A DNA stretch of 51,441 nt. Source: a virus. Taxonomy: Duplodnaviria > Caudoviricetes. The position numbers and the translations under genes are program-made. Below, piece by piece: positions 19,680-41,696 of the stretch. The stretch spans positions 1 through 51,441 of IMG/VR virus record IMGVR_UViG_3300022074_000068. The stretch is one strand, 5' to 3'. Under the pieces are notes generated by a model. The model worked only from the letters and a program-made list of their open reading frames with translations, had not been told where the DNA came from and ran no database searches. Numbering within the stretch: the stretch's first letter is position 1; each line of letters starts with the position of its first letter.

Positions 19680-22600
19680 ATGGCAGAAGTGCAAACACAA
19701 ATAAAAGACGATACCGAAGAAGATAAAGTTGAAGAAAACAAAGTTGTGAAAGACAATGTAGAAGAGAACAAAGTCATCACTCCTTCTGTTAATGATAATT
19801 CAACTATGGATATTGTTGTCAATCCTACAGCTAATTTAGGCGATCCTAAAATAAAAAAAATTGTTAAAGAGGATATAGTCACACAAGGAGAAGAGGGCAA
19901 GATAACCTATGATAAGATTATTTCAGGAGAAGTAGATCAAATAGGTGGTCAAAAAATAGACTTTGTTACAAAGACATTAGCACAAGAAGGTCATGTTCCC
20001 TCTATTATAAAAATAGAAAAGTTAGCAAAGGATGCTCCTAAACCAACTGACGTTAAGATAGGTGGTATTAGGAAAGGCGAAGTCATGTCTTTCACAGGAT
20101 TATCCGAAGATCAAGTTACAGACTTAACCCAGTATGCAACAGGTAGATTAAGAGTTCTTAATGCTTTACAAGCAGAAAATCCTCAAACTGGCGAATCTCG
20201 TGTTCAAGATAAAAGAATACAACAGTTGCTCGTTGATTATTATAGCACTGGTCAATTCTACACAGAAATAGCTAAAAGATTAGCAGAGTCTGGTAGAGGT
20301 TTAACTTTGACACCTGTCCTTGCAAACATGGCGTATCATCTTGTGGGTGCTGCCACGGATGCAGTAGATTTACCTGACAATGCACAAAGACTTTTTGGAT
20401 TTACAGTTGAAGATGAGACATTTGCTGACTCGTGGAACAAACGATCTCCTGCAATGGCAGAGTTTTATCAACAGTATAAGGCAATGATTGAAGAAGATCT
20501 AGGAGCGTCTGGATTAACAACAGCTTCTGCAATGAATGATGATCTAAAAAAGATATACGTAGAGGTGTATGGTCAAGAAGAGTACGATAAAAGATATAAA
20601 ATAACAAATCCTGTAACAGGTAAAAAAGTAGAACTTCCTATAATAAGTGAAGAGCTAGGTCAAGATCTTTTAAAAATAGCGTTTGATGAATTACCTATAG
20701 AGCAACGTGTAGCTACAATGATATTAGAAAATGTAGGTATAGGTGGTATTATAGCTAAAGCAAGATTGTACAATGGTAAGTTTGATCTTAAAAAAGCTCA
20801 AGATCTAAGAAAAAATGAGCCAGAAGAATATGGTGGTTTAACTAATATTCAAATCCTAAGAAAGTCAAATATAAAAAATGCGTCAAATGGATTTACTAAA
20901 GCTTGGTACAAAACAACAGCTAACATAGGCAGACGATTTAAAATGAGAGGTGCTGTTGATTCAGCACAACATAATTTGGATAGAGACAATGCTGTTCGTT
21001 TACTAGATAAACAGATAGGAGATGTTCAAAAAGAATTAAATGGATCAAAATTAGATACGTTTAATAAAAACAGACTTCTTAATAAGTTAGAAAATTTAGA
21101 AACACAAAGAACTAAATTTGTTTTTCCCTTTCCTCGTAAAACATTTATGACTGGTGTATTTAAAGATGAATTAGTTATAGGACTCGGACAAGGAGCAGGA
21201 TATGAAATTAGTAGATTTTATGGCTTTAATACAGATGCAGGTGAAGTAATAGGTGCTTTGTCTACGGCAACAGGAGTTCCACAATTTTTAATTAAAAAAT
21301 CACTTGTAGGAAAATACGCACCTTTAACACTTGCAAATAATTGGACTGGAGGTGCATTAACAAACTTTGCATCAACTATAGAGATGTTACCTTTTATAAA
21401 GAAAGGTACATTTATTGATCGCAGATTTGAAACTCTAGAGGATGAACTTGGCGTTCCGTTAACAATAGAGCAAAAAGTAGCTGTAGAAGAAACATCAAGA
21501 ATTATAAAAAACTTGAATCCTGAACAAAGAGAGATGATATGGAACTCAATAAATGAGTATCAACGAGTAAGAGATAGAATTGTAAATTCTTTTAAAGATC
21601 CTGAAAAAAGAAAAGAAGCTAGAAGATTGTTTCAATTAAGTTTTGCTCACATATCAGGATTAGCACCATTACAAGCCTTACAAGCAAAAGCTTCAGGTAA
21701 ATTAAGTGCAACAGGTAGAAACCTTGAAGATGCTATAGGGTATCAATTACAAGCAGAAAATACAGTTGCTGCGGCCACAGCTGCAATAAATAATCTTAGA
21801 AGAATGGTAAGAGATGACTTAACTGTTGATACTGAAGATAGAGAAGTTTTAACAACGTTTGTAGAAAACTTTCAAAAAGCATCAGACAATTATACTTTAA
21901 TGGTCAACGAAAATAAAATAGACTATATGAAGCAACTTCAAGAATTAAAAAATAATATAATAAAAGATCCAACTAAAAGTTTACCTTCCAACTTAATATC
22001 ATCACTGGCAGAGATGGAAGTAAAAATAACTGCAGGTGCAGCTAACAATCTTGAGAAAAAACGTGATATATATATTGAAACAACTAAAGATGTATTTAAA
22101 CAACTAAATCTTAGAGGTAAAAATTTACAACTTCTAAGGGGTACACCTGAATACAAATTTCAATTAGGTAAATACATAGAGGAAGTATACGATGCTCGTG
22201 ACGAAAGTATTTATCTTCAAAGTAAACTTTTGTATCAACCCATAGATGCTGATGGTGATCTCATTAATATATCAAATGTAGTTGCAGACTTAATGGGTAG
22301 AGAAAAAAGGTTATCTGGAAAAGAATTAAAACAATTTTTTTCAGCAGAAGGAGATTTATTCAGAAGTAGATCTGGTAGATATCTTAGACAATCCATGAAC
22401 TCTATGGCAAAAAGAAATCTTAAAAAAGAATTAGGTTTAGAAGATGATGATTTTACTCAACTACAAGCGTACCATGCTAATCCTGAACTATTGAAAGGTG
22501 CTGACAAAGAGGACTATTTAGTAGATCCTAGTCCGTTAAACATAGCTTTTTTATACATGCAAAAGTCAAAAGGAGATGCAGAAAAAGCTAGATTTTCACC

Positions 22601-24377
22601 ATTCAAAGGCACGGTATCTGAAGTTGAGGATTTAAGACGACACCTTGTAAATTTAAGTATGCGAACTAAAGAATCAAATCCTAGTTTAAGTAAACAGTAC
22701 GGTGATCTCGCAGAAACGGTCAACTCTTCTTTGATGGCAGATTCAAGAGCAGAAGATATACTTAACGCACGTAAGGGATATAAAAAATTAAATTTTGATC
22801 CAGTAAGAAAAGGTGGCATAGGTCAAAAATTAGATACAGCTAGAAATAATCAACCTGCTAAAGAATTTGTTGCAGAAAACGAGTATAAATATCAATACGT
22901 AACAGGGTTTCAACCAGAAAACTTTCATGATGGATTTGGCAAAAACATGGAAAAAATCCTAAAGAAAGACGATCCTACTGCAGTAACTGCTTTGATGAAA
23001 GAAAAAAGGGAGTTGGTAGAATTTTGGACTGCAGACTCATCTGTGCCTAGAGTTTTTGATTTGACAACAGAAGAGGGAAGAGAAAAGTTAGCTACTGTTT
23101 CTAGTTTGGTATCGGCAAGTATATATGAACATTGGGGAACAGCTAGAGATGCAGTTTTAGAAAAATTGCGTAGACAACAAAGAGCAGGTATATCTGTAGG
23201 TCCTGAAGATTATGATTTTACTAGTGCTGAACGAATACAACAACTACAAAATCTTCTTACAGTGCAAGTGAAAACAGCACCCACCAAAGTTGGCACTCGT
23301 GGAATGGAAATCCCCGGAGAAATACAAACTGTCAAATTAGTTGATCTATCTCAAATAGTTAATGAAGAAAAAGAATTACTTAACTTACTTGATGTCAGTT
23401 CAAGAGCTAGAAAAGAACTAAAAGATTTAACAGACGAATTAAACGACACAACAAGTTTGTTAAATGAACGTGCAGCAGCAAAGTTTAAAATACAAGATAA
23501 AGGAAGTAAGGAGCTTGAAAAAGTAGCTAATATAAGAGACTCTGAACAGTTTTACAAAATGTATGTAGAACAAGGATCTCCTAGCATGATAGCAACTTTA
23601 CGAGAAAATTATATTACTTCTAGAATTTATGATGGTAAAGTTACACGTGAAGAAGCTCTAGCAGAATTTAAACAAGGCATGGTATTTCATATAACAGAAG
23701 GTCTTTTAAAAAGAGCAGGGAAACAAAGATCAGAAAATACATTGACAGGTATAGATGGATTACCTTTTCAACTTACAGAGTTTACAAATGCAGGTCAATT
23801 AGCTACAGATCTTACTGATACTAACACACAAAAAATATTGAGTGTTATTGGCTTTGAGGATAAACACATTCAACATCTCGAAGATTTAGGTAGGTTCTTT
23901 GAATATGCTCAAGGTTCTAGTTTAGCTAGATACGATGTCTACGGTGGTGTTAGATCAATATCGCCCAATGAATTAATAAGTCGTGCATTTAATTTAGCTA
24001 GAGGTATGGTAAGTCCTACATATGTTGCAGGAGAATTTAGTGCAAGAATACTAATATCTAAGCAACAAGAACTAATAGCTCTTGCAGCTCAAAGTAAAGA
24101 AGCTGCGAGGATACTTGGTGATGTGTTGCAAAATCCAACAGCAGTAGTTGCTAATGATATAAAGACATTAGCTGTTCTCTTAAAAGAATTTGCTGCTACA
24201 AAGCTACTACAACTTGGAGCAAAAGCACCATCTTACTTACCTGCTAGTGATCTACAAGCTGCCTATTTAGAAACTCAAGGAGTTGATTTTAGTTCAGTTC
24301 TTGAAGATCCCAAACGTAAAAAACAACCATTAGAAAAACTATATGAAGAGGAAAAAGTTAATGAAAATGTACAATAA
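19680..24377 (+). CDS. large internal virion (ejection) protein
   Basis: 1565 aa, helical; last large gene of the structural arm; ISRAFNLARGMVSP.YVAGE near the C-terminus. Confidence 0.7.
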   Translation: MAEVQTQIKDDTEEDKVEENKVVKDNVEENKVITPSVNDNSTMDIVVNPTANLGDPKIKKIVKEDIVTQGEEGKITYDKIISGEVDQIGGQKIDFVTKTLAQEGHVPSIIKIEKLAKDAPKPTDVKIGGIRKGEVMSFTGLSEDQVTDLTQYATGRLRVLNALQAENPQTGESRVQDKRIQQLLVDYYSTGQFYTEIAKRLAESGRGLTLTPVLANMAYHLVGAATDAVDLPDNAQRLFGFTVEDETFADSWNKRSPAMAEFYQQYKAMIEEDLGASGLTTASAMNDDLKKIYVEVYGQEEYDKRYKITNPVTGKKVELPIISEELGQDLLKIAFDELPIEQRVATMILENVGIGGIIAKARLYNGKFDLKKAQDLRKNEPEEYGGLTNIQILRKSNIKNASNGFTKAWYKTTANIGRRFKMRGAVDSAQHNLDRDNAVRLLDKQIGDVQKELNGSKLDTFNKNRLLNKLENLETQRTKFVFPFPRKTFMTGVFKDELVIGLGQGAGYEISRFYGFNTDAGEVIGALSTATGVPQFLIKKSLVGKYAPLTLANNWTGGALTNFASTIEMLPFIKKGTFIDRRFETLEDELGVPLTIEQKVAVEETSRIIKNLNPEQREMIWNSINEYQRVRDRIVNSFKDPEKRKEARRLFQLSFAHISGLAPLQALQAKASGKLSATGRNLEDAIGYQLQAENTVAAATAAINNLRRMVRDDLTVDTEDREVLTTFVENFQKASDNYTLMVNENKIDYMKQLQELKNNIIKDPTKSLPSNLISSLAEMEVKITAGAANNLEKKRDIYIETTKDVFKQLNLRGKNLQLLRGTPEYKFQLGKYIEEVYDARDESIYLQSKLLYQPIDADGDLINISNVVADLMGREKRLSGKELKQFFSAEGDLFRSRSGRYLRQSMNSMAKRNLKKELGLEDDDFTQLQAYHANPELLKGADKEDYLVDPSPLNIAFLYMQKSKGDAEKARFSPFKGTVSEVEDLRRHLVNLSMRTKESNPSLSKQYGDLAETVNSSLMADSRAEDILNARKGYKKLNFDPVRKGGIGQKLDTARNNQPAKEFVAENEYKYQYVTGFQPENFHDGFGKNMEKILKKDDPTAVTALMKEKRELVEFWTADSSVPRVFDLTTEEGREKLATVSSLVSASIYEHWGTARDAVLEKLRRQQRAGISVGPEDYDFTSAERIQQLQNLLTVQVKTAPTKVGTRGMEIPGEIQTVKLVDLSQIVNEEKELLNLLDVSSRARKELKDLTDELNDTTSLLNERAAAKFKIQDKGSKELEKVANIRDSEQFYKMYVEQGSPSMIATLRENYITSRIYDGKVTREEALAEFKQGMVFHITEGLLKRAGKQRSENTLTGIDGLPFQLTEFTNAGQLATDLTDTNTQKILSVIGFEDKHIQHLEDLGRFFEYAQGSSLARYDVYGGVRSISPNELISRAFNLARGMVSPTYVAGEFSARILISKQQELIALAAQSKEAARILGDVLQNPTAVVANDIKTLAVLLKEFAATKLLQLGAKAPSYLPASDLQAAYLETQGVDFSSVLEDPKRKKQPLEKLYEEEKVNENVQ

Positions 24378-33770: not shown

Positions 33771-34524
33771 TTCTTTCCCCTTTTTCCATATCTTTTAAAT
33801 CCTTGTTCAAAACAATTAACTTAGTTGGAACATAGTTCCGTAACTTTCTTATCATCATGTATGCCTTAGACGTTGCATCTTTGTCAAGAGCTACATAAAC
33901 TTTCTTGAATTTTTTTATCACGTTGATGTGTTCATCTAACAATGTCGTACCCATCAATCCTATTCCTGATGCAATGTTACTAACACAGCAAGCACTAGGA
34001 CAATCTTCGACAATAATTCCACAAAATCCGTTTCCAGATAAAAAAGGATATCTGCTATTTCCATATCTTCTCCATTTTGGTTTACTTCCATTCAAACTTC
34101 TACCTGTACCATCTATTGTCTTTCCATCTTTCTTGACTAGGTACACTACTCTATCTTGTTGAAAGTCATATCGTATGTCAGCCAATCCATTTAGGTAAGC
34201 ATCGTACGATCCTACTTTCTTTACATACGCTTCTGCTTCTTTACTTCGTGAAAGCGAAACAAACGTATCAGGAATAACAAACTCTGTATCATCTACTTTC
34301 TTTTCAACACGTTCTTTAAATGCAACCTTTGAGTTCTCTTTAGTGAGTTGCACTCCTGTAGATCCCTTAGTGTGACAGTCAGCATGAAAGCAATACCATA
34401 GTCTTTCAAATCCTGTATCAGTTACACTAAAGGTGTTACTCCTATGACAAACAGGGCAATCACCCCTAAAACGCCCATAAGATACAACATGTAAATTTCC
34501 CACATAATTCTTTATCCATTCCAT
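33742..34524 (-). CDS. DNA primase (zinc finger plus TOPRIM)
   Basis: CPVC...CFHADC zinc finger; IIVED and ALDKDA TOPRIM motifs; start moved to ATG 34524. Confidence 0.85.
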   Translation of the reverse strand: MEWIKNYVGNLHVVSYGRFRGDCPVCHRSNTFSVTDTGFERLWYCFHADCHTKGSTGVQLTKENSKVAFKERVEKKVDDTEFVIPDTFVSLSRSKEAEAYVKKVGSYDAYLNGLADIRYDFQQDRVVYLVKKDGKTIDGTGRSLNGSKPKWRRYGNSRYPFLSGNGFCGIIVEDCPSACCVSNIASGIGLMGTTLLDEHINVIKKFKKVYVALDKDATSKAYMMIRKLRNYVPTKLIVLNKDLKDMEKGERNDFIRRYIN

Positions 34525-34531
34525 TTCCAAA

Positions 34532-34602
34532 CCATTACTACGCAATAAACTTTATGTCAAATAAAAAAATAATTTGACGTAATTTTAAATACGTGGTATG
34601 TG
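34532..34602. promoter_or_regulatory. divergent sigma70-like promoter pair
   Basis: Minus strand: TTGACA (34560-34555)-17-TAATGG; plus strand: TTGACG (34574-34579)-17-TATGTG; located at the strand switch. Confidence 0.6.
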
Positions 34603-34630
34603 TGTGAAACCCTTTGGGAGAACACACACT

Positions 34631-34897
34631 ATGACACATTCAGTAACTAAAACGAAACAAAAATACGTACTTAAAAGCTACGTAGATGAGGAAGGATTTG
34701 ATGCAGACGGCATAGGCGACTATACGTATGTCGCTGAAAGATACCAAAGCTTCGATTCAAAAGAAGAGATACTATCCTATCTACAAAAGAACATTAGATA
34801 TGACTACAAAAATGTCAAACCTAATTTTAGTACAATAAAAGAATATTGTGATACATTTGAATTTGAATTGTTTGAAAGGGCAGAAAAGTATGACTAG
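34631..34897 (+). CDS. hypothetical protein
   Basis: Start moved to ATG 34631 (GGGAG RBS). Confidence 0.65.
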   Translation: MTHSVTKTKQKYVLKSYVDEEGFDADGIGDYTYVAERYQSFDSKEEILSYLQKNIRYDYKNVKPNFSTIKEYCDTFEFELFERAEKYD

Positions 34898-35117
34898 ACC
34901 AAACAAGATATTTCAAGATACAACATCTTACAATTTAAAGATAGAAAAAAAAGATTACGAAGAACTAAAAAAGTACTCGACAAAAGAATCGGATACGTTT
35001 AACATGCAAGTAAGCATTGCAGATTTAATTCGTACATCTGTAAAATTATATTTAGAGGATTTACGTAAGCTATATGGAAAAGAAACAAACAAAGACAAGT
35101 GTGCAACAGAGAAGTGA
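34890..35117 (+). CDS. ribbon-helix-helix (CopG/Arc-like) DNA-binding protein
   Basis: Beta strand YNLKI, helix KKDYEELKKYS, then SIADLIRTSVKLYL; start moved to ATG 34890. Confidence 0.6.
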   Translation: MTRPNKIFQDTTSYNLKIEKKDYEELKKYSTKESDTFNMQVSIADLIRTSVKLYLEDLRKLYGKETNKDKCATEK

Positions 35118-35346
35118 CGGTATGTGGATTGTCGATGCAAAGTTGTCAGCAGTACGTATAGGATTACAAGACAAGGAATTTGTCAAACGTGGACACAATA
35201 CAGATTACAGATTATGGGTAACCTGTTTTGTAGCCAAGACAAAAAATGCTTGTGTTGATTGGCTAAGAGACAATATGGCTATGCTAGATAAGCGAAGTCA
35301 GAAGTACTCTGTTAATGTCAGGCAACATAAGGAAAGCACTAACTAA
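35074..35346 (+). CDS. hypothetical protein
   Basis: 90 aa, overlapping the upstream gene. Confidence 0.6.
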   Translation: MEKKQTKTSVQQRSDGMWIVDAKLSAVRIGLQDKEFVKRGHNTDYRLWVTCFVAKTKNACVDWLRDNMAMLDKRSQKYSVNVRQHKESTN

Positions 35347-35438
35347 CTTTTCCTTTCATAAGTTGGTGCTTTCAAGCTCATAATTTCTCCTTACGTTGAA
35401 GAGGGGAGCAACCCAAAAAGTTGCTCCTCTTTTTTTTT
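35332..35438 (+). ncRNA. candidate small regulatory RNA / structured 3' UTR with anti-Shine-Dalgarno loop
   Basis: 13-bp stem (35332-35344 with 35361-35373, one U-G pair) around loop AACUUUUCCUUUCAUA; second pyrimidine tract UUUCUCCUU; ends at a terminator. Confidence 0.5.
35399..35438 (+). terminator. intrinsic terminator
   Basis: AGAGGGGAGCAAC-CCAAAAA-GTTGCTCCTCT followed by a T run. Confidence 0.85.
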
Positions 35439-35439
35439 G

Positions 35440-35469
35440 TTGACAAGTGTTTTTAGTTAGTTGTATAAG
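35440..35469 (+). promoter_or_regulatory. sigma70-like early promoter
   Basis: TTGACA-18-TATAAG directly after the terminator. Confidence 0.6.
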
Positions 35470-35504
35470 TTTCCCTGACACTAATTTAATCGAAAGGAAA
35501 TATC

Positions 35505-35738
35505 ATGTCAAAGAAAACAGAATGGGAAATAGAGAGAGATAAGCAAGTCGCTTTACGAACAAAGGCTATGAAGTCTCTTACTCCTGAACAATTACAGACA
35601 CTTGAAAAAGTTCACATAACATTAGATACAGTTTTGCATAACATAAGAGAGATAGACGATATCTATTTGACAGATATAAAAGAGTTAGATATTTGTATGT
35701 GGCAATTAAAGAATCAATTTAATTTGGGGAAAGACTAA
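35505..35738 (+). CDS. hypothetical protein
   Basis: GAAAGGAAA RBS; 77 aa. Confidence 0.75.
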   Translation: MSKKTEWEIERDKQVALRTKAMKSLTPEQLQTLEKVHITLDTVLHNIREIDDIYLTDIKELDICMWQLKNQFNLGKD

Positions 35739-35908
35739 TGGCTAAATCACAAGAATACAAATTAGGTTGGAGATACATAGTTTGGGTTGGTGGTTGTGAT
35801 GACTATTACAAAAGTCGTAAAGATGCACAACACGCTTATGATGGTTGGATTGCACAAGGTTATACAGATGTACAGATAGAAAGGATAGAGAAAGATGAAT
35901 TGGCTTAA
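35738..35908 (+). CDS. 56-aa hypothetical protein
   Basis: MAKSQEYKLGWRYIVWVGGCDDYY...W...GY.DV.IE; TAATG coupling; not in the ORF track. Confidence 0.7.
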   Translation: MAKSQEYKLGWRYIVWVGGCDDYYKSRKDAQHAYDGWIAQGYTDVQIERIEKDELA

Positions 35909-37028
35909 TTTATGTAGTGGTGGCGAGATAGGTCGTCAGTCTGTAAAAGAGTTGGGGTTACCTGTAACTAATTGGCTTAGTTCGGAGATAGATAAGTTTG
36001 CTATCAAAGTAGCTCAAGATAATCATGATGACATAACTCATTTAGGCGACATAAAAAATCTAGTGAAGTGTTTGGATTGGAACAAATTTCCTAAAATAGA
36101 TGTTATTCTATGTGGATCACCTTGTCAGGGATTTTCTGTGGCAGGCAAAGGGTTAAACTTTGAACACCCTCAATCGAAGTTGTTCTTTGATTTTGTCAAG
36201 ATATATAAATACCACTACAATCGTAATCCAAAATTAAAATTGTTATTTGAAAATGTACGTATGAAAAAAGAATGGCAAGACATTATCCTAAATACATTAC
36301 AAGAGATCAATCCTAATTTAAAACTTTATATGATCAATTCATCTATTGTATCTGCACAGAACAGACTACGTATGTACATAACAGATTTTGAGTTCGACAT
36401 ACCTGAAGATAGAAATGTCAAACTTCGTGACATAATAGAGTGTGGTTGTGTAGATAGGGAAAAGTCTTATTGTTTAGATGCAAACTATTGGAAAGGTGGT
36501 AACTTAAAAATGTATTTTGAGAAGTCACGCAGACAGTTGGTATTTGGAGATGGTTGCAAACAGGTTGGGATAGCTGATCTGAATGGACATGACATACTAA
36601 AGCGTGTCTATTCTGTAGAGGGTAAAGCTCCTACGCTGAACAGTTGTAATGGTGGCAATCGTGAACCTAAGATACTTTGTAATTCTGCATCAATCACAGG
36701 TCGTAGACTAGACAGACAAGGTATACGTAAGGATAACGATCTAACTGTTCCAATTACCCAAACCTTAGAAGTATCTGATTCAGGTAAGTCACGGTGCTTA
36801 TCTACATTGACTAAAGATACAGTTGTGTCGCCTTTGCCAAAAGGTAGGTATCCTGATGCTTATGGAGAAAATGCTTTACATTGGAGAAAGTTGACTGTAA
36901 AGGAATGTTGTAGGTTGCAAACGTTACCTGATGATTACTGTAAGTCAGTTAGTAATAGTCAAGGCTACAAGATACTTGGGAACGGTTGGACTAACGAAGT
37001 CATTAAGTTTATTTTGAAAGGAAAATAG
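35895..37028 (+). CDS. C5 cytosine DNA methyltransferase
   Basis: SEIDK, GDI, GSPCQGFS (catalytic PC), FENV, AQNR.R, RKLT..EC.RLQ, LGNGW. Confidence 0.92.
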   Translation: MNWLNLCSGGEIGRQSVKELGLPVTNWLSSEIDKFAIKVAQDNHDDITHLGDIKNLVKCLDWNKFPKIDVILCGSPCQGFSVAGKGLNFEHPQSKLFFDFVKIYKYHYNRNPKLKLLFENVRMKKEWQDIILNTLQEINPNLKLYMINSSIVSAQNRLRMYITDFEFDIPEDRNVKLRDIIECGCVDREKSYCLDANYWKGGNLKMYFEKSRRQLVFGDGCKQVGIADLNGHDILKRVYSVEGKAPTLNSCNGGNREPKILCNSASITGRRLDRQGIRKDNDLTVPITQTLEVSDSGKSRCLSTLTKDTVVSPLPKGRYPDAYGENALHWRKLTVKECCRLQTLPDDYCKSVSNSQGYKILGNGWTNEVIKFILKGK

Positions 37029-37029
37029 T

Positions 37030-37182
37030 ATGACAGATAAAAAGAAAGATACAAAAAAGTATCACGATTGGGTGTACATGGCAGATGATCAAATAAACCA
37101 TGTATTAAAGTATGTTATCATTTTAGTATTTGCTTGTGGTGGTATAGCTATTATAAGTGATTTAATTAAACGATTTATATAG
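37030..37182 (+). CDS. 50-aa single-TM membrane protein
   Basis: TGAAAGGAAAA RBS; hydrophobic YVIILVFACGGIAII; not in the ORF track. Confidence 0.65.
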   Translation: MTDKKKDTKKYHDWVYMADDQINHVLKYVIILVFACGGIAIISDLIKRFI

Positions 37183-37192
37183 GGGAAAGTTA

Positions 37193-37924
37193 ATGTACGA
37201 AAGTCAAGTAAATAGAGTAAGTCAATTAATTCATGATCTACATGAAGAGATAGATGAGGTAAGAAAACAAAACGTTGGCTTACGAAATGCAAACGAGATA
37301 TATAGTAAACAAAATATTGATCTACGTAAAAACCAAGATCAAGATGATCTGAATAGACAGATTACAGAACTCAAGAAAGAGAATATCAAACTTGTAGCTC
37401 AATTAGAAAATGATGAACACAACGTTGGGCATCTAGATGAGAAGATGAAAAGGCTAGACTATTTAGAAAAGATATTCTCTGAAAACAGGTATGTGTTTAG
37501 CGATATACCTAACACACCTGAAAACATGAAGATGGTGAAGTTGATGAAGAAACATATCAACAAAAGAAAATACACTATGCGTTGGCGTGGTCAGTATCTT
37601 ATTGATGGAGAGGATTGGAGAAAGTATACAGATGGACAACCTTTGTCAAAGTCCAAATGTATTCGTGTCTACATAGATAACAAACCTTACCAAATAGATA
37701 ACGTTGAAGGATTCAATGCAAACGAAGTCGATACAATCATAGATGCTCTGAACTGTTGGGAGAATGAACTATCTAGCGATCACTACAAGAGTGACACAGT
37801 AACACAGTTGCTTAACTATTTTGAATCCATGCGACTACACCTTGAGAACTCTGCTTCGAAACCTATTAAGGATAACGTCAACATTGTTATTCCAAAGGGA
37901 GACAAACAATGTCACACCAAATGA
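37193..37924 (+). CDS. hypothetical protein with N-terminal coiled coil
   Basis: AGGGG RBS; heptads in aa 5-95; YVFSDIPN...RWRGQYL...IRVYID domain. Confidence 0.75.
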   Translation: MYESQVNRVSQLIHDLHEEIDEVRKQNVGLRNANEIYSKQNIDLRKNQDQDDLNRQITELKKENIKLVAQLENDEHNVGHLDEKMKRLDYLEKIFSENRYVFSDIPNTPENMKMVKLMKKHINKRKYTMRWRGQYLIDGEDWRKYTDGQPLSKSKCIRVYIDNKPYQIDNVEGFNANEVDTIIDALNCWENELSSDHYKSDTVTQLLNYFESMRLHLENSASKPIKDNVNIVIPKGDKQCHTK

Positions 37925-38103
37925 ATGACAAAGTGTTCGACTTTATAAACGATAGATGGCTTGAAATGAGTGTCGAGGATTTTAAAGATTGGCTCAAAAC
38001 TCATAGGGATACAGATATGGTTGCAAAAGTTGTCCACGATAATCTAGATAGTTTAGAGGAGAAATGGAAACAGGAGAAACTTGACAGTTATCCATATGTT
38101 TGA
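37909..38103 (+). CDS. hypothetical protein
   Basis: GGGAG RBS; 64 aa. Confidence 0.6.
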   Translation: MSHQMNDKVFDFINDRWLEMSVEDFKDWLKTHRDTDMVAKVVHDNLDSLEEKWKQEKLDSYPYV

Positions 38104-38139
38104 TAACAATAATCTGAACAGACAAAGAAAGGAACACAG

Positions 38140-38727
38140 ATGTCTAACACAGATAGAGTAAGAGCTTATTACAATCTACACCGAAAGTGCTTTTCTGTAC
38201 AGGATTACAAAACAGGATTGGTAATCGAACACACTAACAAGTTGTGCTTTACCAACGCTATGTTTGTCGTCAGGAAGTCAGGCAACGAAAGGGTAAAGAA
38301 AGAGGGCAGAAAGAATGTCCATGCTTTTGTAAATGGAATACGCAATGACAAATGGAATGACACTAACCATTTGAAAGTTAGAGAACGTGTCGCTAATTTT
38401 TTCAGGGTAAAGTATGATCCTCATACAATGGATTACTTTCACTACAAAAGAATTAATGATTGGCTACCAATCGATAGACATTGGATAGGTAACGTTTGGC
38501 TATTTATGGAGGGAGATCGCCCAAGAGTTGTAGCCAACATAGACAGATTAGATGACACTAAAATCTATGACATTGACAAACCAAGCGACACTAAAAAAGA
38601 ACCTATCTATGTAATTAAAGATGAAACTTGTATTAAAAGGCTTTACGAGGGTGGTGGATTTTCAATGGAATTTTTAAGAAAAAAGCAAAAGCAAATAAAT
38701 AATAAAAAGAAATTATTTACAATCTAA
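38140..38727 (+). CDS. conserved phage hypothetical protein (Y.NLH...FSV...RKNVHAFV motif)
   Basis: GAAAGGAA RBS; TTGACA-17-TAACAA candidate promoter at 38081-38109. Confidence 0.75.
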   Translation: MSNTDRVRAYYNLHRKCFSVQDYKTGLVIEHTNKLCFTNAMFVVRKSGNERVKKEGRKNVHAFVNGIRNDKWNDTNHLKVRERVANFFRVKYDPHTMDYFHYKRINDWLPIDRHWIGNVWLFMEGDRPRVVANIDRLDDTKIYDIDKPSDTKKEPIYVIKDETCIKRLYEGGGFSMEFLRKKQKQINNKKKLFTI

Positions 38728-38784
38728 TCTAGATAGTTTACAAATTAACTACGTTCAATTTTAATTTAACTGAAAGGAAATAAA

Positions 38785-39795
38785 ATGAACTATATAGCTA
38801 ATGACTTCAATCATGAAGTAAAAACACATAGAGATTTTCAAGATGTAAGTTTCTATGAAGATAATTCTAAAATAACTAAAGTTGATCTTCAGGCTATGTT
38901 ACCTGTTCCAAATGACGATCCTGACTTTGGCGTAGTAACAACGCCTGAAGATTTAAAAGGTTATTTTGGTTTGTACAATTCTAGTCTAGATAAGTTATTA
39001 AATACACGCCCTGTATCTAATACTTATCAGCTTGTACCTCATCATGAATTGTTTAATGAACAAGCTAAAATACTTGGTCAATCTGATTTACCTTTAGAAA
39101 ATATAACTGTAAAAGATCAGCTTTATAAAGATGGATTACAAGCTCATCGAACTATATTTTTTCATGATCTAGAAACTACCGTATCCAATAATAAAGATAA
39201 GGTTTTATCTAGAATTGATATCTTTAACAGTTGTGATATGTCTTGGTCGTTCCAAGTTTTCTCAGGTGCGTACCGTGATCTATGTAGAAATACTTTAGTT
39301 TTTGGTGGACAAAAAGCGTATCATCAACAAGCCAAACATACTAGGAATTTATCGACTACGGCTTTAATGACTAAGGCAAGTATTGGTTTGGAATTTTGGA
39401 ATAACCAAAAAGAAACTATGTTAAATTGGAGAGCAAAAGATATGTCGCCTGAACAGTTTGGCAACATTCTTAAACAGACTATTTGTAAAAAGAAAAGTAA
39501 ATCTGCTGAACTTAATTTAACTAATCCAATTAATGAAACTAAGATGAATTATTTATTGGATAGGTTCGAAAAAGAAACACCTGATTTGGGAAAAACTATG
39601 TGGGCAGGCTATAATGCTTTAACACATTGGGCAACTCATACTGACGAAACTATCGAAAAAGAAATCGATAATAAGTTAGTCAAAATTAGATCAGGTAAAT
39701 CAACGGCAGATGTTCCAAGCGTTCAAAGAACACGCAATGACGAAGTAAGACAAGTTATTGAATGTGAGCATTGGAAAGAGTTAGAGTTAGCTTAA
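38785..39795 (+). CDS. DUF932-family protein
   Basis: VS..YQLVPH, NS.D.SW.F, GAYR.LC.N, HT, T.WA.YNA.THWATH; TGAAAGGAAA RBS. Confidence 0.8.
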   Translation: MNYIANDFNHEVKTHRDFQDVSFYEDNSKITKVDLQAMLPVPNDDPDFGVVTTPEDLKGYFGLYNSSLDKLLNTRPVSNTYQLVPHHELFNEQAKILGQSDLPLENITVKDQLYKDGLQAHRTIFFHDLETTVSNNKDKVLSRIDIFNSCDMSWSFQVFSGAYRDLCRNTLVFGGQKAYHQQAKHTRNLSTTALMTKASIGLEFWNNQKETMLNWRAKDMSPEQFGNILKQTICKKKSKSAELNLTNPINETKMNYLLDRFEKETPDLGKTMWAGYNALTHWATHTDETIEKEIDNKLVKIRSGKSTADVPSVQRTRNDEVRQVIECEHWKELELA

Positions 39796-39887
39796 TGAAT
39801 GGTGGCTTAGAACTCGCTTATATCTTATACAGAATAGTTGTGGTTATACTATTCTGTTTAATTATTTACGCAATTATTCAATGGTAA
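39795..39887 (+). CDS. 30-aa membrane peptide
   Basis: MNGGLELAYILYRIVVVILFCLIIYAIIQW*; TAATG coupling. Confidence 0.55.
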   Translation: MNGGLELAYILYRIVVVILFCLIIYAIIQW

Positions 39888-39902
39888 ATGAAAGGAAATC
39901 TT

Positions 39903-40139
39903 ATGAAAGATAACCATATAGACAAAACCAAACTACACGTTTGTGTTATTTGTGCTGAAACAATTAAACCGAAATTGTTGGGTTTGGATAATGATGGTAA
40001 CAAACATTATTGGTATGATGGCAATAATGCTGAACCTGTTGCTAACGGTAAATGTTGTGACAATTGTAACGCCACAGTTGTAATTCCACAAAGGTTTACT
40101 GATTTACAAATGTCAATTATTGAAAGGAAAATGATATGA
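39903..40139 (+). CDS. small zinc-binding protein
   Basis: CVIC...GNNAEPV..G.CCD.CN..VVIP.R; start moved to ATG 39903 after TGAAAGGAAA. Confidence 0.75.
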   Translation: MKDNHIDKTKLHVCVICAETIKPKLLGLDNDGNKHYWYDGNNAEPVANGKCCDNCNATVVIPQRFTDLQMSIIERKMI

Positions 40140-40486
40140 AAACATTGACAGACATTGATACACAAATAGACGCTTTAAAAGAAGTGTCTAGTAATGCTTT
40201 ACTTAAACACGGTTTTAGTAGATCAAGACAAAGAATATTTGACTTATCAAAATCACTTGACCAAACATGGCAAGACTATAAAGCGATACATGGCAAAACA
40301 TATTACAAGGAACTTACGCTATTTGTAATTACACGTTCTGCAATTGGCTTACGCTATAAAACAATTGTAAAACGGTCAGGTTTAAACGGTGTAGTTGTTC
40401 ATGATTGTTTAACTGATTTATTAAATGAAAAGTTAATCTATAAAAAAATAGTTGATGATAAGCTTATCTATCGTGCAAAAAAATAA
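40136..40486 (+). CDS. putative winged-helix DNA-binding protein
   Basis: GLRYKTIVKRSGL....VHDCL.DLL.EKLI.K...YR pattern; TGAAAGGAAAA RBS. Confidence 0.55.
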   Translation: MKTLTDIDTQIDALKEVSSNALLKHGFSRSRQRIFDLSKSLDQTWQDYKAIHGKTYYKELTLFVITRSAIGLRYKTIVKRSGLNGVVVHDCLTDLLNEKLIYKKIVDDKLIYRAKK

Positions 40487-40487
40487 C

Positions 40488-40550
40488 TTGCATTAAATAA
40501 AAAAATAAATTTATAATTAGGCTAGGTTAGGAATTAACTTAGCCTTTTTT
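40488..40550 (+). promoter_or_regulatory. sigma70-like promoter overlapping a terminator hairpin
   Basis: TTGCAT-18-TATAAT (40488-40517) followed by AGGCTAGGTTA-GGAAT-TAACTTAGCCT-TTTTT. Confidence 0.55.
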
Positions 40551-40573
40551 ATGTTTAGAAAGGATTTCTTCCA

Positions 40574-40936
40574 ATGGAAACAAAAACATATTTAATTAAA
40601 ACTAAGTTTGATTATTCAACAAATGAACTTGTAAATGTTGACGGTAATAATTTAACTATTGAATTTAAAATTATGGATAAATATACCATGATTGAAATAA
40701 TAGGAAGATTAAAAGACCGAACGGTTGAAGAATTTAAACATCAAATAATTTGTAATAAAAATCAAAATATTCAGGTGTTAACAAATCGTAATGATCAGGT
40801 TGAAAAAGAAAACGAACCTATTAATGAAAATGTTGATAGAGTACATTTTGATCAGGTATTTAAAAACGATTATCAATTAGGCTTGCACGGTCAATTAGAT
40901 TTAGAAGATTTAATTAATGAAAAGGTGAAACAATGA
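40574..40936 (+). CDS. hypothetical protein
   Basis: GAAAGGA RBS; ends GQLDLEDLI. Confidence 0.7.
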   Translation: METKTYLIKTKFDYSTNELVNVDGNNLTIEFKIMDKYTMIEIIGRLKDRTVEEFKHQIICNKNQNIQVLTNRNDQVEKENEPINENVDRVHFDQVFKNDYQLGLHGQLDLEDLINEKVKQ

Positions 40937-41058
40937 AATACTTTTTAAAAGAACTGTTAGAGCTTGTTAAATGGCTTTCCGTTGGGTTTGTTTGTGCTTA
41001 TGCTCTTGCAAGTTATCACGGTTTGGATACAAGCTTTAGTAATCTAATAGGTGCTTAA
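40933..41058 (+). CDS. 41-aa membrane peptide
   Basis: MKYFLKELLELVKWLSVGFVCAYALASYHGLDTSFSNLIGA*; AAGGTG RBS; ATGA overlap. Confidence 0.55.
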   Translation: MKYFLKELLELVKWLSVGFVCAYALASYHGLDTSFSNLIGA

Positions 41059-41059
41059 T

Positions 41060-41242
41060 ATGGCTTATTATTTTGAATGTGAAACTTGCAATACTAAAGA
41101 GTATTTTAATTATGTAATGCAATCTGAGTATTACGGCTTAAAGACTCCCAAAGCAAAAAAACAATCATATGAAACCGTTATTTGTAAATCTTGCATATCT
41201 AAAAAGGTAAGGTTAAAAGGTAACTATATTATAATTAAATGA
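41060..41242 (+). CDS. small zinc-ribbon protein
   Basis: CETC...CKSC; start moved to ATG 41060 (AGGTG RBS). Confidence 0.65.
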   Translation: MAYYFECETCNTKEYFNYVMQSEYYGLKTPKAKKQSYETVICKSCISKKVRLKGNYIIIK

Positions 41243-41253
41243 AAGGAAATAAA

Positions 41254-41643
41254 ATGAACTATCCATCAAGTATAAACAGTAATGTTAGAGCAAATAAAAC
41301 TATGTTTAGTAGTAATTTAACTCTTGAAGATATACCTCATAGAGATCATAAGTTAAGAAATATCGCAAAGGTTGAGAATTGCAAAAGCACTAGATCAGGT
41401 AAAGCAATAGCAAATCAATTTATTATTACTTTACAAAATGGTATTAAGATATTTCAATCTTATGATACTATTATTGCAATAAAAGCAAATGGTGAGACTT
41501 ACCTTGATTATGAATGTTGGAACTATTCAAATACTACTTCAAGATATCGTAAAGAGTTTCTTGGTGAAGATACTAGAACAACAAAAAATAAAATAGATCA
41601 AGGTAAATATATACTTGAATATTTAAATAAAAAGCTTTATTAA
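41254..41643 (+). CDS. conserved phage early protein of unknown function
   Basis: ANQFII...FQSY.TIIA...W.YS.TT..YR..FLG; TGAAAGGAAA RBS; start moved to 41254. Confidence 0.75.
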   Translation: MNYPSSINSNVRANKTMFSSNLTLEDIPHRDHKLRNIAKVENCKSTRSGKAIANQFIITLQNGIKIFQSYDTIIAIKANGETYLDYECWNYSNTTSRYRKEFLGEDTRTTKNKIDQGKYILEYLNKKLY

Positions 41644-41661: not shown

Positions 41662-41696
41662 AAAGCACTTTAGATTAGTTTCTAAGGTGCTTTTTC
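41662..41696 (+). terminator. intrinsic terminator ending the early gene block
   Basis: AAAGCACTTTAGA-TTAGTT-TCTAAGGTGCTTT followed by further T residues. Confidence 0.75.

Follow-up and report, generated by a model that had tools for sequence, protein, structure and literature searches.

A conserved + strand RNA with a candidate anti-Shine-Dalgarno loop upstream of a gene block in an uncultured group of marine phages

The window analysed here is a whole virus record (IMGVR_UViG_3300022074_000068; 51,441 bp, 36.8% G+C, 96% complete by the CheckV estimate), and a folded RNA element of about 107 nt, encoded on its + strand at positions 35332-35438, is conserved in this phage and in about forty related sequences. 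The structural RNA is real and, as far as the literature searches reach, newly described. It closes a small rightward operon (operon 1) and precedes a block of 13 mostly small genes, many of which share a ribosome-binding site (RBS) complementary to the loop of the element. It is proposed, with a probability of roughly 45%, that the element is an anti-Shine-Dalgarno (anti-SD) regulatory RNA embedded in a 3' untranslated region (3' UTR) and represses the adjacent block. Comparative sequence analysis lends partial support to an anti-RBS function, which is plausible but unproven.

The element starts with hairpin 1 (35332-35373), supported by folding and covariation, in which GAAAGCACTAACT (35332-35344) and AGTTGGTGCTTTC (35361-35373) form a stem of 13 bp, one of them U-G (14-15 bp in some relatives), that displays the 16-nt loop AACTTTTCCTTTCATA (35345-35360). 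The core of this loop, UUUUCCUUUC (35348-35357), is the exact complement of GAAAGGAAAA and represents the first candidate anti-SD seed. The second candidate, UUUCUCCUU (35384-35392; TTTCTCCTT in DNA), is located in a single-stranded linker. An intrinsic (Rho-independent) terminator follows at 35398-35438, likewise supported by its fold and by covariation, with a stem of 14-15 bp (15 pairs in the window), a 7-nt loop and a run of 9 U (9 T in DNA). The stop codon of the upstream gene (35344-35346) falls inside hairpin 1, so that the 5' arm is coding sequence. Folded alone, hairpin 1 reaches -17.2 kcal/mol (z-score -4.5; none of 200 shuffled sequences was as good) and the terminator -21.2 kcal/mol (z -4.1), and a 126-nt stretch of the + strand folds at -41.5 kcal/mol (z -5.1, 0/200 shuffles), compared with z -3.1 and 3/200 shuffles for the - strand. 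Neither the minimum-energy nor the centroid structure pairs the loop or the linker. Among the 25 listed out of 30 inverted repeats of the whole 51 kb (at least 12 nt, within 40 nt), only hairpin 1 and one other spaced pair reach 90% complementarity. A preliminary description of the window, made from the sequence alone, had noted the stem, the loop, the second CU tract and the terminator, and all of these are present, including the restriction of the U-G pair to the + strand.

Relatives were collected through homologs of the 90-amino-acid (90-aa) protein encoded immediately upstream (20 IMG/VR and 41 metagenome loci) and through a scan for the downstream promoter, which gave 41 stretches, about half of them from this phage group; since many loci are the same contigs twice, counts are given over distinct sequences. 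In a MAFFT alignment of 15 distinct elements, 6 of the 14 pairs of helix 1 changed on both sides while 96.7% of the cells remained paired, a covariation score that none of 500 column shuffles attained; with the partner shifted by 1-3 columns, pairing fell to 43-63%. A larger set of 31 distinct elements, drawn from 34 loci that were chosen among those with the long hairpin and aligned to covariance model R1, and hence leaning toward the structure, again gave 6/14 pairs changed on both sides and 96.5% paired cells for helix 1, and 98.1% paired cells overall (0/500 shuffles). The terminator in this set has compensatory changes at 2 of 13 pairs and 99.8% paired cells, and both helices, with 8 compensatory pairs, also emerge from an independent RNAalifold prediction. 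Four positions of the stem are often occupied by U-G or G-U pairs (e.g. UG:10, UG:10 and GU:12 at three pairs); on the - strand such pairs would become A-C mismatches, which points to the + strand RNA as the selected molecule. Amino-acid changes in the coding 5' arm (GAA to CAA, E to Q; GAAAGC to GGGAGC, a KES to KGS-type change) are matched or wobble-tolerated by the non-coding 3' arm. The stem varies at 10 of 14 pairs, and the loop core UUUUCCUUUC is identical in 34/34 aligned elements; the linker is kept as UUYCUCCU across the loop-bearing clade. In all 31 variants, both CU motifs are predicted to be unpaired (probability 0.99-1.0 in the loop, 0.67-1.0 in the linker). The element occurs once per genome, and related linker tracts (UUUUCCUCC, UUUUUCUCC and UUUUCCUCUC) are kept in relatives without the long hairpin. 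These patterns of sequence change indicate that the element is a + strand RNA structure under selection.

The loop finds its complements mainly in the downstream block (35505-41643). The motif GAAAGGA has 11 copies on the + strand of the window, nine of which lie 5-10 nt before start codons within 35492-41247; its single copy on the - strand is the loop itself, which is the sole reverse-complement copy in the genome. These nine GAAAGGA(A) sites (35492, 35879, 37016, 38127, 38772, 39890, 40122, 40558 and 41241, all on the + strand) are the proposed targets, with loop-duplex energies of -9.7 to -13.7 kcal/mol; the leaders of the genes at 37030, 39903 and 41254 are of the GAAAGGAAA type. Eight of the sites had been listed in the preliminary description and proved to be real, with 7-11 contiguous complementary bases; the site at 35879 is the ninth. 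With gene starts called by an in-house heuristic, GAAAGGA precedes 9/13 block genes, 0/13 replication genes, 0/41 late open reading frames (ORFs) and 0/3 operon-1 genes. Genes of the last three groups use GGAG, GAGG, GGGG or AGAGGA, in keeping with the earlier statement that late genes mostly rely on other RBS types. This RBS class is specific to the block. The related motif GAAAGGAA has 9 matches against 2.96 expected, a number reached in 2 of 100 shuffles, and the 7-11 nt of contiguous complementarity between loop and block RBSs extend past the consensus 3' tail of 16S rRNA through a 3' AAA and a 5' U or AU. Mean loop-duplex energies are -10.8 kcal/mol for the initiation regions of the block (n=13; median -11.6), -8.1 kcal/mol for those of the replication genes (n=13) and -7.6 kcal/mol for those of the late genes (n=36, left from the 41 ORFs after exclusion of five, with starts at 102, 5091, 6317, 14768 and 48998, that are short or doubtful). 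The difference between block and other regions is significant (Mann-Whitney p 2e-4), and none of 2000 shuffled loops attains the observed mean. The linker tract shows no preference for the block (-9.0 kcal/mol, versus -10.7 for late genes).

Comparison of the loop-bearing genomes (the window, G001 and G002) with loop-less ones (G003, G004 and G005) shows that loop and RBS type occur together. Within 8 kb after the promoter of the block lie 9 of 11 GAAAGGA copies in the window, 9 of 10 in G001 and 6 of 7 in G002. The corresponding fractions are 0/2 and 0/1 in G003 and G005, which have only the linker, and 2/3 in G004, which has no element; in these three, sites of the form (A)AGGGGAAA fall in the block in 3/4 (G003), 2/2 (G005) and 4/4 (G004) cases. 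Over distinct loci, 29 loop-bearing ones (77.9 kb) contain GAAAGGAA before ATG 71 times and AGGGGAAA 6 times, the six linker-only loci (18.0 kb) 0 and 11 times, and the two loci without the element (7.5 kb) 0 and 2 times. The loop-less relatives use GGGGAAA or CAUAGGAGAAAA RBS types, and the RBS of orthologous genes changed with the clade: the gene for the DUF932 protein of 336-338 aa is preceded by UGAAAGGAAA in the loop clade, by ACAUAGGAGAAAA in G005 and by AGAAAGGGUUUU in G003 and G004. The linker of G005, AUAUUUUCCUCCUAUGU, has matches of at least 8 nt at 7 of 12 initiation regions of its own block (CAUAGGAGAAAA sites), at 0-2 in the blocks of the other genomes and at 0 of 26 of its own non-block ORFs, and the loop tracts show the converse pattern. 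Such a clade-wise agreement of seed and RBS is what seed-target co-evolution would look like.

Several observations weigh against a repressing anti-RBS RNA. GAAAGGA falls inside the sequence that the 3' tail of 16S rRNA normally pairs with; as an ordinary SD sequence it pairs with any CU-rich tract, and the complementarity is partly generic. The excess of loop pairing over the energy of the consensus 16S tail is modest (block -2.2 versus -0.8 kcal/mol, p 0.03), the motif is missing from 4 of the 13 block genes, and the starts behind the RBS counts come from a heuristic. On a tree built from the 90-aa gene, a single change suffices to explain the loop label (97/97 support), which makes the association of loop and RBS one evolutionary event rather than 29. 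Two lineages, G004/L039/L060 and L040, have lost the element: G004 (with L039 and L071), L060 and L040 have neither hairpin, linker nor terminator between the 90-aa gene and the promoter. Both lineages keep a block-specific RBS of the GGGGAAA type, so that the RBS class does not depend on the RNA. The base 5' of GAAAGG does not follow the loop variant (..CAUA versus ..CGAU), and the first block gene of the window (UCGAAAGGAAA) would fit the other loop variant better than its own loop. A convincing sigma-70 site upstream of the hairpin, which could act as an internal promoter, was not found by the promoter scan, and the RNA-library contigs that cover the region have depths of 2-8 and give neither ends, strand nor level. 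The proposal of the preliminary description that the loop is an anti-RBS RNA is upheld in part, namely for the selected + strand structure, the accessible seeds, the block-specific RBS, the better loop pairing with the block and the co-occurrence of loop and RBS type, and is weakened by the one-event association, the generic SD sequence, the block-specific RBS of relatives that lack the element and the imperfect fit of the first block gene to its own loop.

The RNA-library data come from a sequencing-run search that returned 20 holders from 10 studies, 6 of them RNA libraries, of which four RNA runs were compared as Logan contigs. Contigs of three RNA runs from two studies cover the hairpin (X16 and X19 from one study, X17 from the other). 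The bin with the hairpin has the highest summed word depth of X16 (17.8), and short pieces of this run end in Illumina adapter sequence at 35272 and 35390, one 83-nt piece corresponding to 35308-35390. Neither this depth peak nor the adapter-flanked ends are evidence of a discrete RNA. Coverage in X14 extends over 26 of 30 bins and both gene strands, so that DNA carry-over is possible in that run.

In the proposed mechanism, 35332-35438 would act as a regulatory RNA module at the 3' end of the first rightward operon, composed of the hairpin that shows the UUUUCCUUUC loop, the unpaired tract UUUCUCCUU and the intrinsic terminator with its long U tail. The exposed loop seed, and perhaps also the linker seed, would pair with the extended SD sequence (A)UGAAAGGAAA(A) of mRNAs transcribed from the block promoter (P2), and this pairing would block 30S binding and lower translation of the whole block, in which 9 of 13 genes have the motif; host mRNAs might be targets too. 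The active form could be either a piece released from the operon mRNA or the 3' UTR of the mRNA itself. With the stop codon inside the hairpin, terminating ribosomes would be expected to hide the loop whenever the mRNA is translated, and an RNA that has been released or is not translated is therefore the more likely active form; masking of this kind would couple the activity of the RNA to operon-1 translation. Release of the RNA, pairing in vivo, repression and timing are steps that we infer.

A broader and rather doubtful idea is that this widespread marine podovirus lineage, which is related to the HMO-2011 type and in which an RNA polymerase was not detected, times a gene block through an RNA 'address code', in which the 3' end of operon 1 would supply an RNA with two anti-SD seeds and the block genes the matching extended SD, with seeds and RBSs co-evolving between clades (UUUUCCUUUC with GAAAGGAAAA, UUUUCCUCCUAUGU with ACAUAGGAGAAAA). 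The T4 protein RegA represses a class of phage early mRNAs post-transcriptionally via their initiation regions. The address code, if true, would be its RNA counterpart, with an RNA as the proposed effector in place of a protein, and a class-wide translational switch would be legible from sequence alone. If repression by the element is true, a phage without its own RNA polymerase would switch off a gene class by translation rather than by transcription, and the combination of a seed with a matching RBS class could serve as a sequence signature for similar circuits in metagenomes. The candidate comes from an abundant uncultured group of marine phages, its covariation is unusually clean, and its predicted targets are the phage's own genes and can be read from the genome. 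In the available parts of the literature, phage-encoded RNA control is described as little explored, the few studied cases being mostly enterobacterial prophages or lambda (PMC12197685 and abstracts). Among the titles and abstract openings covered by the literature searches, no phage small RNA (sRNA) is described as repressing a gene block of its own phage at the RBSs, and the words sRNA, promoter and terminator are absent from the main text of the principal paper on HMO-2011-type phages (PMC9038755), whose supplements could hold promoter or terminator maps.

Other explanations of the conserved structure were weighed against a trans-acting repressor. The element is the physical 3' end of operon 1 and shares its terminator, and it could act in cis only, with hairpin and terminator protecting the operon-1 mRNA from 3' exonucleases and the anti-SD tracts folding back on the SDs of the operon. 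A precedent for the latter is the icaR mRNA of Staphylococcus aureus, in which a pyrimidine anti-SD motif of the 3' UTR pairs with the SD. Here base pairing is possible between the linker sequence UUCUCCU and GGGAGAA of the first operon-1 gene, and between the loop and GAAAGGG of the second, with duplex energies of -8.6 to -11.5 kcal/mol, and the linker tract rather than the loop is the part common to all element-bearing lineages. We nevertheless regard an exclusively cis-acting role as unlikely. Whereas pairing in icaR takes place within one mRNA, the best complements of the phage loop are in another transcription unit: the exact loop complement of 10-11 nt occurs only in the downstream block and is absent from operon 1, where the mean duplex energy (-9.6 kcal/mol) is weaker than the block median of -11.6. 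Protection of a 3' end also needs no invariant 10-nt loop, and on a translated mRNA the loop would probably be covered by terminating ribosomes. The conserved loop might also reflect nothing beyond an ordinary gene-end hairpin and terminator, kept for reasons unrelated to the RBSs such as recent common descent, given that loop-bearing elements form one clade, that many of them are at least 90% alike and that two lineages do without the element. This explanation is improbable, since within that same clade 10 of 14 stem pairs changed with compensation and the 10-nt loop core never did, synonymous change is plentiful in the upstream coding sequence, and none of 2000 shuffled loops fits the block to the same degree.

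The pyrimidine loop and tract might instead be recognised by an RNA-binding protein of the phage or the host; hairpins that bind proteins, too, typically combine a sequence-invariant loop with a variable stem. Alternatively, the CU tract could serve as an anti-terminator by pairing with the purine-rich 5' arm of the terminator and so control read-through into the block; by hand, UCUCCUU (35386-35392) can be paired over 7 bp with GAGGGGA (35401-35407), and likewise in the L007 group. The alternative pairing is absent from the minimum-energy and centroid structures and is impossible in the short-hairpin relatives, the tract is unpaired with probabilities of 0.67-1.0, and a strong conserved promoter directly after the terminator makes control of read-through unnecessary. 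Together with the lack of a nearby RNA-binding protein in family, fold-model and Atlas searches, this leaves protein binding or attenuation improbable as well. An action mainly on the host, with the seeds binding SDs of host mRNAs or sponging a host RNA and the match to the phage block being incidental to shared SD usage, is the least probable of these explanations. Anti-SD seeds are generic by nature, and the linker tract complements AAGGAG-type SDs; for cuckoo RNA, the available text of PMC4615179 poses global versus specific repression as an open question. Against an action on the host stands the fit of the loop to the extended motif of the block, beyond the SD core, which is better than to other phage genes, and the late and replication genes of the phage, which need translation, would be hit too. 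Two further candidates were rejected. A minus-strand gene with the loop as its RBS, which the preliminary description had named as a finding that would overturn its proposal, is excluded by the ORF search, as no - strand ORF of at least 30 aa starts just below 35345 and the sole start seen by eye opens about 13 codons; the G-U pairs, which point to the + strand, disfavour it as well. The same pairs rule out an inverted repeat acting at the DNA level, as an operator or origin.

In comparison with known RNAs, the whole window has 0 matches to Rfam 15 at the gathering score, AbcR/ar15, C4 and DapZ included. The top score belongs to Plastid-psbA-3 (24.2 bits against a cut-off of 48.4) and covers the terminator hairpin only; other matches below threshold are Aar (21.1 versus 60) and DapZ (20.3 versus 56, E 0.22), and no C4 or ar-family match appears at E up to 10. 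The element resembles sRNAs derived from 3' UTRs (DapZ, CpxQ and SroC type) in its position at the end of a coding transcript with a shared terminator, its conserved and accessible upstream seed, which has 7-11 nt complements at nine block RBSs, and its long U tail. It differs from them in that DapZ matches only below threshold and in that release, Hfq binding and an internal promoter or RNase E site belong to the known family. The RNAs of the cuckoo family have 2-4 adjacent hairpins with CCUCCUCCC in each loop, according to the available part of PMC4615179. Like these RNAs (RSs0680/C14/alpha-r14 type) and AbcR, the phage element presents a conserved pyrimidine anti-SD loop on variable, compensating stems, for which RBS occlusion is proposed (PMC4615179, as far as its available text goes). 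It differs in being phage-encoded, in having UUUUCCUUUC rather than CCUCCUCCC in its loop, and in having one seed-bearing hairpin with the second seed in a linker. With CCUCCUCCC absent from the element and no Rfam model matching, it is not a member of those families. By analogy with the portion of PMC4615179 at hand and with established knowledge, its design, in which a seed and an A/U-rich linker precede a terminator with 8-10 U, corresponds to the one found in anti-SD sRNAs and in sRNAs derived from 3' UTRs. The closest phage RNA in logic, by analogy and without any match in sequence or structure, is the c4 antisense RNA of phages P1 and P7, whose loops pair around the RBSs of the phage's own downstream genes (PMC12197685, available part). 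Shared with c4, and with the CI RNA of P4, are a phage-encoded structured RNA, a transcript upstream of its targets and loops that complement the phage's own downstream RBSs. The c4 RNA serves immunity in temperate phages and has targets on the same transcript, whereas a terminator and a new promoter separate the present element from up to nine genes that share a site.

The gene whose end overlaps hairpin 1 is the last of operon 1 (35074-35346, + strand) and encodes the conserved viral protein of 90 aa, for which 61 homologous loci were collected. Neither a Pfam nor a PHROG family was found for this protein, nor a tblastn match in cultured phages; the ESM Atlas returned viral hypothetical clusters only, and its AlphaFold model, with a predicted local distance difference test score of 56.9, is too poor for a fold search. 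Among 45 distinct sequences, codons 58-62 (35248-35262) and 67-73 (35275-35295) are almost without synonymous change while the neighbouring codons are free. These codons could mark an overlapping signal, such as a promoter or a processing site for the 5' end of the RNA. In the gap between operon 1 and the divergent replication genes, a candidate promoter P1 (TTGACG, 17 nt, TATGTG; 34574-34602, + strand) was read by eye; TATGTG fails the rule of the promoter scan, and P1 is missing from its list. TTGAC(G/A) occurs at the same position in G002 and G005. The SD (GGGAGAA) of the first operon-1 gene is enclosed by an inverted repeat, GUGUGUG...CACACAC (34600-34629), which contains a short inner CCC/GGG stem, has a folding energy of -12.6 kcal/mol (z -2.4) and may be a leader hairpin that controls translation of this gene.

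The predicted promoter of the block, P2, follows the consensus (TTGACA at 35440-35445, 18 nt, TATAAG at 35464-35469) and continues with GTTTCCCTG (35440-35477, + strand). It lies directly after the U run of the terminator and is near-invariant in relatives (L021-L061, L075-L115), including those in which another gene comes first after it. In L054, a promoter of this type sits in a divergent intergenic region without operon 1. Many relatives (L001, L004, L008, L010-L012 and L015) have a leader module 3' of the promoter, comprising a GAGTGATAYACACTC hairpin and then TATACTAAGAACAGTTAA, which the window does not have; in L040, part of this GAGTGATAYACACTC/TATACTAAGAACAGTTAA module is found upstream of the promoter instead.

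The large terminase of the window phage is 48-58% identical to those of Roseobacter CRP and Pelagibacter HTVC phages (HMO-2011-type marine podoviruses), and alphaproteobacteria are the hosts of its closest cultured kin. Searches of INPHARED in near and distant mode found no DNA match to 34500-36000 in cultured phages, and Pelagibacter phage HTVC033P has a different gene layout, with no comparable element seen in its first 16 kb. The window has no identified tRNA gene, and no integrase was found among its annotated ORFs; PF00940 (T7-type RNA polymerase) had no match in the window, a weak negative in that control genomes were also silent. The region of late and structural genes (+ strand) begins at about 42.0 kb, continues over the record ends and stops at 24.7 kb; it includes a 1565-aa ORF (19680-24377) without a Pfam family; ORFs of 572, 754 and 444 aa in the window have neither Pfam nor PHROG matches. 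Replication and nucleotide genes (ribonucleotide reductase, Cas4-like nuclease, DNA polymerase, helicase and primase) occupy 24.7-34.5 kb on the - strand, followed on the + strand by the three small genes of operon 1 (34631-35346) and by the downstream block. The block encodes a C5 cytosine methylase (35895-37028), a protein similar to gp82 of mycobacteriophage L5 (38140-38727) and the DUF932 protein (38785-39795), its other genes being small ORFs without a family; its consensus promoter and gene content may point to early expression. A 14-nt inverted repeat (93%) lies in the gap 3' of the DUF932 gene and is accompanied by two terminator-like hairpins (39825-39861; 40519-40545; 41662-41693), and because of these structures inside it, the block may comprise several transcription units.

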